This document shows, in pieces, positions 1 through 284 of a DNA stretch of 284 nt. Position numbers and translations under genes: made by a program. The stretch is taken from NCBI RefSeq assembly GCF_003334405.1, contig NZ_QOWM01000070.1. One strand, written 5' to 3'. Each line of letters opens with the position of its first letter. Within the stretch, counting starts at the first letter, position 1. The notes beneath the pieces are model-generated. The model saw nothing but the letters and a program-made list of their open reading frames with translations, ran no database searches and was not told the origin of the DNA. This DNA comes from Escherichia coli (GTDB lineage: Bacteria; Pseudomonadota; Gammaproteobacteria; Enterobacterales; Enterobacteriaceae).

Positions 1-75
1 GGTCGTTAGCTCAGTTGGTAGAGCAGTTGACTTTTAATCAATTGGTCGCAGGTTCGAATCCTGCACGACCCACCA
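1..75 (+). tRNA. tRNA-Lys (anticodon UUU), 5'-partial: first G of the gene lies outside the window
   Basis: Seen in sequence: 1-75 is identical to 209-283 and matches the E. coli-type tRNA-Lys(UUU) sequence I recognise (GGGTCGTTAGCTCAGTTGGTAGAGCAGTTGACTTTTAATCAATTGGTCGCAGGTTCGAATCCTGCACGACCCACCA). Anticodon loop CUUUUAA at 31-37 with anticodon TTT at 33-35; T-loop TTCGAAT at 53-59 flanked by stem gcagg (48-52) / cctgc (60-64); acceptor 3' strand acgaccc (65-71), discriminator A (72), encoded CCA (73-75). The paralog (lysT/W/Y/Z/Q/V) cannot be assigned because the copies are identical. Confidence 0.96.
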
Positions 76-82
76 ATTTAAA
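76..82 (+). promoter_or_regulatory. AU-rich 3' trailer (ATTTAAA) immediately after CCA; candidate RNase E cleavage site
   Basis: Seen in sequence: atttaaa at 76-82, and the same a follows the second CCA at 284. Established knowledge: RNase E separates polycistronic tRNA precursors by cutting AU-rich single-stranded sequence a few nt downstream of CCA. The assignment to this site is inference. Confidence 0.45.
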
Positions 83-113
83 GGTGGTTACTGGTAGAGA
101 ACGTGAAGGATAA

Positions 114-129
114 CGTTGCGTTAGCAACG
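114..129 (+). other. Hairpin: 6-bp stem cgttgc / gcaacg with GUUA loop
   Basis: Seen in sequence: 114-119 cgttgc is the exact reverse complement of 124-129 gcaacg, with loop gtta at 120-123. An overlapping alternative is taacg (111-115) / cgtta (119-123). Not followed by a T-run, so not an intrinsic terminator. Confidence 0.5.
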
Positions 130-140
130 GCCCGAAGGGC
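130..140 (+). other. Short GC hairpin gccc-gaa-gggc
   Basis: Seen in sequence: gccc (130-133) pairs with gggc (137-140) around loop gaa (134-136). It abuts the previous hairpin and is not followed by a T-run. Confidence 0.4.
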
Positions 141-156
141 GAGACGAAGTCGAGTC

Positions 157-174
157 ATCCTGCACGACCCACCA
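157..174. repeat. Exact 18-nt copy of the tRNA-Lys 3' end (atcctgcacgacccacca) inside the spacer
   Basis: Seen in sequence: 157-174 is identical to 58-75 and 266-283, so the 18-mer occurs three times in direct orientation. The flanking bases differ (c at 156 versus a at 57), which bounds the repeat. Confidence 0.92.
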
Positions 175-207
175 TCCTGAATGATTAAGGCAGCATAATC
201 CCGCAAG

Positions 208-283
208 GGGTCGTTAGCTCAGTTGGTAGAGCAGTTGACTTTTAATCAATTGGTCGCAGGTTCGAATCCTGCACGACCCACCA
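208..283 (+). tRNA. tRNA-Lys (anticodon UUU), complete 76 nt with encoded CCA
   Basis: Seen in sequence: 208-283 is gggtcgttagctcagttggtagagcagttgacttttaatcaattggtcgcaggttcgaatcctgcacgacccacca. Acceptor 5' strand gggtcgt (208-214) pairs with acgaccc (273-279); anticodon loop cttttaa at 239-245 with anticodon TTT at 241-243; discriminator A at 280; CCA at 281-283. Identical to copy 1, so the paralog cannot be assigned. Confidence 0.97.
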
Positions 284-284
284 A
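209..284. repeat. Second copy of a perfect 76-nt direct repeat (first copy 1-76), period 208 nt
   Basis: Seen in sequence: 1-76 and 209-284 are identical base for base, comprising the tRNA gene plus the first trailer base. Confidence 0.95.

Follow-up and report, generated by a model that had tools for sequence, protein, structure and literature searches.

The lysZ-lysQ junction of the Escherichia coli lysT operon and the RtT-family module in its spacer

Two identical tRNA-Lys(UUU) genes stand 208 nt apart, measured start to start, in a 284-nt stretch of Escherichia coli DNA (the whole of which is called the window here). This raises the questions of what sets the spacing between the genes, and of whether their identity records a recent duplication. 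An earlier note on this DNA had described a perfect 76-nt direct repeat of the tRNA-Lys gene with a period of 208 nt. A repeat search of the 284-nt window gave the same result, positions 1-76 and 209-284 being 100% identical with a start-to-start distance of 208 nt; a chance origin is impossible for an exact 76-nt repeat within 284 nt. The assignment of the repeat to the tRNA-Lys gene is also real, but the repeat lies one base out of register with the gene, the complete copy of which occupies 208-283. The first copy lacks G1 because the window starts within lysZ, and for this reason ARAGORN reports one gene only, tRNA-Lys (ttt) at 208-283, while Rfam (RF00005, threshold 29 bits) scores the second copy at 79.2 bits and flags the first, with 71.1 bits at 1-72, as 5'-truncated. 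The 76th base of the repeat (positions 76 and 284) is the A found directly 3' of both genes; in the K-12 genome the maximal repeat is 78 nt, consisting of G1, the remaining tRNA and AT.

The repeat search also revealed a third, partial copy that the earlier note had overlooked, along with the composite nature of the period that follows from it. The last 18 nt of the tRNA, ATCCTGCACGACCCACCA, occur again at 157-174, with spacings of 99 and 109 nt. The period of 208 nt is thus made up of a 109-nt part (the 76-nt tRNA and a 33-nt leader) and a 99-nt part (a short RtT-family module), and it is 208 rather than 109 nt because the spacer contains this RtT-family element with its 18-nt tRNA-derived end. 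The features of the window are as follows.

1..75, + strand: lysZ, tRNA-Lys(UUU) positions 2-76 (Rfam tRNA 71.1 bits, 5'-truncated; exact match to K-12 locus L001 2371-2445, within the annotated lysZ at 2370-2445)
58..75, + strand: 3' 18 nt of lysZ, ATCCTGCACGACCCACCA, the left bracketing repeat (repeat family D2), composed of the T-loop end, the T-stem 3' strand, the acceptor 3' strand, the discriminator A and CCA
76..174, + strand: 99-nt short-type RtT-family module, a unit present or absent among strains (RF00391, 60 bits, gathering score 45; filled and empty alleles); because of the 18-nt repeat its limits can equally be written as 58-156
102..111, + strand: 5' strand of the module closing helix, CGTGAAGGAT, with 9 of the 10 possible pairs to 157-166 formed in the minimum-free-energy fold
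114..129, + strand: hairpin 1, CGTTGC-GTTA-GCAACG, with an invariant stem and a loop that is hypervariable among copies
130..140, + strand: hairpin 2, GCCC-GAA-GGGC, from the predicted fold; invariant
143..151, + strand: hairpin 3, GAC-GAA-GTC, with a compensatory middle pair and loops GAA, AAA, GTA and TTCG
157..174, + strand: repeat of the last 18 nt of tRNA-Lys, divided into the closing-helix 3' strand (157-166) and a free tRNA-like tail, ACCCACCA (167-174)
175..207, + strand: 33-nt spacer tail and 5' leader of lysQ, which is the whole spacer in module-less strains; RNase P site for lysQ at 207/208 (RNase P processing is described in PMC4176162)
208..283, + strand: lysQ, complete tRNA-Lys(UUU) with encoded CCA (ARAGORN; Rfam tRNA 79.2 bits; K-12 annotation)
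284, + strand: start of the 3' trailer of lysQ (one base), followed in the genome by the terminator

Identity of the junction and origin of the fragment

The window matches K-12 MG1655 exactly and at a single place, 781370-781653 (L001 2371-2654), running from base 2 of lysZ to one base past lysQ and so containing lysZ, a 132-nt spacer and lysQ. The lysZ-to-lysQ distance is the sole 208-nt spacing in the K-12 operon, lysY-to-lysZ being 222 nt. [quoted passage not shown] Sequence, 208-nt spacing and 132-nt spacer are the same as in K-12, the only differences being that the window starts at base 2 of lysZ and has no flanks. When 5,426 complete E. coli genomes were searched by megablast, 100% full-length matches were found under two adjacent tRNA-Lys genes, and 1718 records were at least 99% identical over the window. 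Each of the matching complete-genome loci that we opened lies between cpoB and nadA. Because the flanks of the window itself are absent, its genomic context is taken from these identical sequences and is presumably the same. We conclude that the window is very probably the ordinary lysZ-lysQ junction of the E. coli lysT operon, with an RtT-family module in the spacer, recovered as a repeat-bounded contig of a k=77 assembly. Earlier work has described the genes as well as the operon, the way it is processed and the RtT family, and the feature is an ordinary one; the locus has little weight as a discovery, and the main addition made here is the resolution of the 208-nt period into a 109-nt unit and a polymorphic 99-nt RtT-family module.

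The form of the fragment can be accounted for by short-read assembly, which the earlier note had expected to truncate or collapse this locus. The length of the window equals the period plus the repeat. When the K-12 locus was represented as a de Bruijn graph with 77-mers as vertices, the spacer edge was exactly the window, and this was not so at k = 55, 75, 76, 78 or 79. A k of 77 is a common largest value for 150-nt reads, and the correspondence indicates that the window is most likely a stand-alone short-read contig. Among the matches listed from draft genomes, the module lay no more than 600 nt from a contig end at 26 of 101 loci, which agrees with assembly breakage at such sites. Whole contigs consisting of module and tRNA fragments were seen in three species-representative drafts (L059, 272 nt; L061, 246 nt; L087, 448 nt), and in L050 the module falls at the very start of a contig of 5,124 nt, within its opening 410 nt. 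Like the window, these are fragments bounded by the repeat. The same 76 nt at both ends are a signature used to recognize circular contigs and, together with the coincidence with a k=77 graph edge, might be read as marking an artefact of assembly, or else a small element of 208-nt units, circular or in tandem, rather than two adjacent chromosomal genes. We consider this extremely improbable, since in complete, largely long-read genomes the 284 nt occur once per chromosome with distinct flanks (the lysY-lysZ spacer upstream and the terminator downstream), and the terminal repeat is simply a tRNA gene. Identical contig ends at this locus should not be taken for circularity or for a tandem array.

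The spacer module and its relation to RtT RNA

The RtT RNA model (RF00391) matches across the window spacer with 60 bits against an Rfam gathering score of 45, a value that is partly a register artefact because the 5' half of the model is aligned to the T-arm of lysZ across a 43-nt insertion. True RtT homology in the window extends from about 100 to 174. This borrowing of the T-arm in the Rfam alignment indicates that the window module is a truncated relative rather than a full-length RtT element. In the K-12 operon each of the five tRNA-Lys genes is followed by an RF00391 match, with scores of 46.7-60 bits; the type locus tyrT-tyrV, which carries rttR, gives 133-137 bits. The module is predicted to fold into a 9-bp closing stem (102-111/157-166) that encloses three small hairpins and leaves ACCCACCA as a free tail. 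The predicted energy is -28.5 kcal/mol (z = -3.58), and none of 200 shuffled sequences was as stable.

The module shares with the RtT elements of tyrT-tyrV a place in a tRNA operon 3' of one of its tRNA genes, a common core (CGTTGC..GCAACG, CCCGAAGGG and GAGTCATCC), and an end formed by an 18-19-nt copy of the 3' end of the upstream tRNA including CCA (in the window, 157-174 repeats 58-75). In both, a complementary 5' strand pairs with the tRNA copy as a closing helix (9 of 10 pairs between 102-111 and 157-166), and both are bracketed by direct repeats and vary in copy number. The two differ in size, the window module being about 73 nt from closing stem to CCA and the tyrT type about 119 nt, and in score (60 versus 133-137 bits). 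The window module is a short type without the 5' domain of about 40 nt (a T-arm-like segment and an extra hairpin; helices 2-4 of alignment A2) that is present in tyrT and in long-type lys modules. Its tRNA-derived parts come from tRNA-Lys and not from tRNA-Tyr.

The RtT RNA of tyrT is annotated (rttR) as a 171-nt RNA, the 3' end of which is the CCA end of the module. The four intergenic RtT-family copies of the lysT operon also pass the Rfam threshold but are unannotated in both K-12 records checked, which exposes an annotation gap; the PGAP label 'RtT sRNA' is found on the copies after lysQ only. After lysQ (K-12, L001 2654-2845; also L004 and L007) the terminator and a long-type RtT module together form a 156-nt unit, of which strains have 0, 1 or 2 copies. 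A direct repeat of 54 nt, in which the 18-mer is joined to terminator sequence, brackets the unit.

We examined the predicted structure by comparison of related modules. The core of 32 short lys modules was nearly invariant, with 99.9% of cells paired and one covarying pair, so that covariation within this group is nearly uninformative. Among the 27 scorable sequences this pair, the middle one of hairpin 3, is A-U six times and G-C 21 times. RNAfold had paired 143-145 with 154-156; this was replaced by 143-145/149-151, the only one of the two with a compensated A-U/G-C change. Hairpin 2 is invariant, and sequence comparison speaks neither for nor against its pairing. For the closing helix a wider set of 167 modules was used. 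At least 9 of 10 pairs could be formed between the 10 nt upstream of the tail and a 5' strand in 82% of these, compared with 8% of shuffled controls. The 5' strand tracks the host tRNA, being CGTG.AGGAT for Lys and GGGGAAGGAT for Tyr, with further compensated variants.

The long-type modules were more informative. When 83 distinct long-type modules were aligned with MAFFT, 96.7% of cells were paired in the tested structure, as against 39-56% with the partners slid; the percentage for the closing helix is biased upward because the 5' strand, and with it the start of each sequence, was picked by complementarity. Nine pairs showed compensatory change, four of them in the closing helix, where the covariation is largely a two-class contrast of Tyr versus Lys. 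We counted 155 doubly changed cells compared with 54 in shuffles, a number that none of 500 shuffles reached. Compensatory changes in hairpin 1 were found in these relatives at pairs 72-81 and 73-80 of alignment A2. RNAalifold did not return the closing helix from the long-type alignment, and the helix was for this reason tested explicitly. The long-type modules (alignment A2; for example L120:4224-4333 and L009:1067-1185) also contain a second host-specific piece, GCAGGTTCGA in Lys-linked and AAGGTTCGA in Tyr-linked modules, which is the 5' half of the T-arm of the host tRNA. A long-type module can be read as the 3' third of a tRNA whose T-loop holds an insert of 65-70 nt, the 3' strand being repeated in inverted form ahead of it.

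Several other readings of the spacer were considered and rejected. The window contains four open reading frames of 25-42 amino acids. One of these, an Arg-rich frame of 25 codons with a GTG start (103-180, + strand), recalls tpr of tyrT; its frame is a different one, and B-type modules, whose length differs by 2 nt, disrupt it. It is probably not coding. A search of the operon gave no promoter-like site, and the terminator-like matches in the spacers were only minus-strand readings of hairpin 1. An internal promoter or terminator in the spacer was thus rejected, in agreement with the single transcript described in the lys-operon passages of PMC4176162. Rfam matches to Plastid-ycf2, Plastid-psbI-rps4 and YrlA fell on the tRNAs, far under their gathering scores, and are spurious.

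Gain and loss of modules and tRNA units

Comparison of complete E. coli genomes indicated that each tRNA-Lys site of the lysT operon exists in two states, filled and empty, with the following spacers.

After lysT: filled 135 nt, empty 35 nt
After lysW: filled 149 nt, empty 51 nt
After lysY: filled 146 nt, empty 48 nt
After lysZ (the window): filled 132 nt, empty 33 nt
After lysQ: filled, one or two copies of the 156-nt module-plus-terminator unit; empty, none

The breakpoint invariably falls right after ...CCACCA, so that what varies is the module together with a single copy of the 18-nt repeat. The window-type spacer was present, at a coverage of at least 80%, in 1996 of the 5426 complete E. 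coli genomes (approximately 37%) and absent from approximately 63%; the lysY-lysZ spacer was present in 4,068 of the 5,426. In 377 of the 5426 genomes there was no megablast match to the 131-nt spacer of the window at all, including its 33-nt tail and the related module of the lysT site. The tRNA genes vary as well. If tRNA-Lys is written as K and tRNA-Val as V, the operon reads KVKKK in O157:H7, KVKVKK in XJW9B277, KVKVKKK in K-12 and KVKVKKKK in E2348/69, the last of which has two consecutive 109-nt periods, that is, an extra identical unit of tRNA plus 33 nt. Variation in both tRNA units and modules makes the locus recombination-prone at two scales, and the description of it as recombination-prone in the earlier note is well founded, given the four operon orders and the precise gain and loss of modules. 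Our search of the literature, outside which the older primary papers on tyrT and rtT fall, found no description of presence/absence polymorphism of the lysT-operon modules. Modules and tRNA units are common length polymorphisms of E. coli, a point that bears on tRNA gene counts taken from draft assemblies.

The distribution of modules in other genera provides information on the age of the junction. A scan of species-representative genomes with a pattern comprising the module core and CCACCA returned at least 120 loci. Among the matches listed, most were from Enterobacterales and a few from unrelated phyla, the latter probably due to chance. The identifiable upstream tRNA among the matches listed was tRNA-Lys(UUU) or tRNA-Tyr(GUA), to which the scan is skewed because CCACCA was required in the pattern; the one exception was tRNA-Ser(GGA) in a Thioglobus MAG. 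With few exceptions among the listed matches for which an upstream tRNA could be recognized, the last 18-19 nt of the module were a copy of the 3' end of that tRNA. The lys operons of other genera showed a similar mosaic of filled and empty sites, consistent with the statement in the earlier note that the arrangement is an ordinary feature of enterobacterial tRNA clusters. For example, the last Lys-Lys spacer is 131 nt in Silvania hatchlandensis and 32 nt in S. confinis. Orthologues of the window module in Citrobacter, Kluyvera, Superficieibacter and Silvania carry the same 5' arm, GGTGG..AC.GGTAGAGAACGTG, and the same 33-nt tail, TCCTGAATGATTA..., and Klebsiella aerogenes gives a full-length match of 90% identity. 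The shared 5' arm and tail indicate that the filled lysZ-lysQ junction predates Citrobacter, Kluyvera, Superficieibacter, Silvania and Klebsiella.

These data bear on the identity of the two tRNA genes, which the earlier note had read as the product of a recent tandem duplication of the tRNA-Lys unit or of ongoing gene conversion. Recent gain and loss of units is real, as seen from the extra identical unit of E2348/69 and the units missing from XJW9B277 and O157:H7. The module tail follows acceptor variants in Budvicia and some Citrobacter although it lies outside the closing helix, which suggests some homogenization, and the module at the window-orthologous site of Enterobacter sp. JUb54 is of a different subtype. 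Three results argue against recent duplication at this junction: the lysZ-type junction is conserved with its own 5' arm and 33-nt tail across several genera, the lysY-lysZ and lysZ-lysQ spacers are unlike, and 119 of 132 tRNA-Lys(UUU) genes (46 loci, many genera) match the 76-nt tRNA of the window exactly. The last of these means that purifying selection is sufficient to explain the identity of lysZ and lysQ. We therefore think it unlikely that the identical copies reflect recent duplication or ongoing conversion; concerted evolution is not required, and the identical tRNA paralogues at lysZ-lysQ should not be taken as a sign of recent duplication. The preferred reading is thus an old, filled junction, the empty alleles of which would most simply represent recurrent precise deletions between the 18-nt repeats, the direction of change (deletion over insertion) resting on parsimony across genera and not on a dated phylogeny.

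The opposite direction, in which filled sites are insertions, would make the 18-nt repeats and the 99-nt insert the att-site scar of an element integrated at the T-loop/3' end of tRNA-Lys. The repeat does run from T-loop to CCA, like the partial tRNA copies that flank integrated elements (PMC9897764), presence and absence are precise, and the long-type modules resemble a tRNA 3' third with a T-loop insert. There is, however, no integrase or other gene at the site, the insert being about 81 nt with no conserved open reading frame. None of 50,697 phage records contained the module, phages carrying only tRNA-Lys look-alikes. All 20 matches filed under 'plasmids' were non-mobilizable, and several of the 12 listed of these 20 were chromosome-sized. 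Neither adjacent element genes nor carriage by a phage or a mobilizable plasmid was thus found. In addition, each site keeps its own module subtype together with its flanks across genera, and the RNA structure is conserved with compensatory changes. An att-site scar is accordingly very unlikely, and we retain deletion from a filled ancestor as the preferred reading.

The following sequence of events could give rise to the observed pattern. Strong purifying selection on the tRNA would keep both copies identical, with gene dosage as the likely purpose of the multiple tRNA-Lys copies. Unequal exchange between the 76-nt tRNA repeats would add or remove tRNA units, and slippage or recombination at the 18-nt repeats would precisely delete the module, converting an ancestral 208-nt period into one of 109 nt.

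Additional observations were made on modules of other genera. Where tRNA-Lys has the acceptor variant GGGGCG...CGCCCC (L031, L032 and L072 of Budvicia; L010, L052 and L069 of Citrobacter), the module tail is CCCCACCA and not ACCCACCA; the location of this tail outside the closing helix suggests homogenization between tRNA and module, or selection for mimicry. In Enterobacter sp. JUb54 (L126:1195-1292, tail TCCTGAATAATTAAAGC...) the module belongs to the other 5'-arm subtype, with a TTAACATC...GATGTTAA hairpin, and this subtype swap indicates exchange of modules between sites. The loci L100 (Sedimenticola), L111 (Aquisalimonas), L073 (Budvicia aquatica) and L053 (Thioglobus) contain core-pattern matches that lie between tRNA-Tyr and tRNA-Gly(UCC), some of them outside Enterobacterales, or, in one case, 3' of tRNA-Ser(GGA), the 3' end of which is matched over 12 nt. 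The RtT-type family may be wider than the enterobacterial Lys and Tyr operons.

Processing of the spacer and a possible role for its RNA

According to the passages of PMC4176162 that deal with the operon, lysT is transcribed as one RNA of approximately 1100 nt, from which RNase P removes the terminator and then cuts the 5' end of each tRNA in the 3' to 5' direction. In this process lysZ keeps the 132-nt spacer as its 3' trailer, lys trailers being trimmed by RNase II/PNPase and then by RNase T; cleavage by RNase E in the long spacers is described only when RNase P is defective (PMC4176162). A term search of the same paper returned no mention of RtT or of repeats, and its passages on the lys spacers contain no report of a stable spacer-derived RNA. 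The rtT RNA of tyrT is cited in passages of PMC4986893 and 10.1101/2024.07.17.603846 as being released as a discrete stable species and as having an effect on the stringent response. RtT-family RNAs beside Lys and Asn tRNA genes were seen on Northern blots of Actinobacillus (PMC4986893). In these sources the release of a stable RNA is documented for tyrT (annotated rttR) and the Actinobacillus relatives only (PMC4986893).

Regulatory RNAs are cut from tRNA precursor spacers in other cases, such as the 3'ETS of leuZ and the metZ-metW-metV spacers. By analogy, the lys spacers are likewise transcribed spacers of a polycistronic tRNA precursor and might survive processing. We know of no target or Hfq binding for the lys spacers. 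The short RtT-type modules might act as mimics of the tRNA 3' end that compete for 3'-processing enzymes or for sensors of uncharged tRNA, with recurrent module loss tuning tRNA-Lys maturation or the starvation response. We regard this as a speculative proposal that is quite unlikely to be correct. The form of such a mimic would be a stem closed by tRNA T-stem/acceptor sequence and a tail, ACCCACCA, that is left unpaired and changes along with variants of the tRNA. If the proposal were true, loss through the 18-nt repeats, which would account for the approximately 63% of E. coli without the window copy, would amount to heritable tuning.
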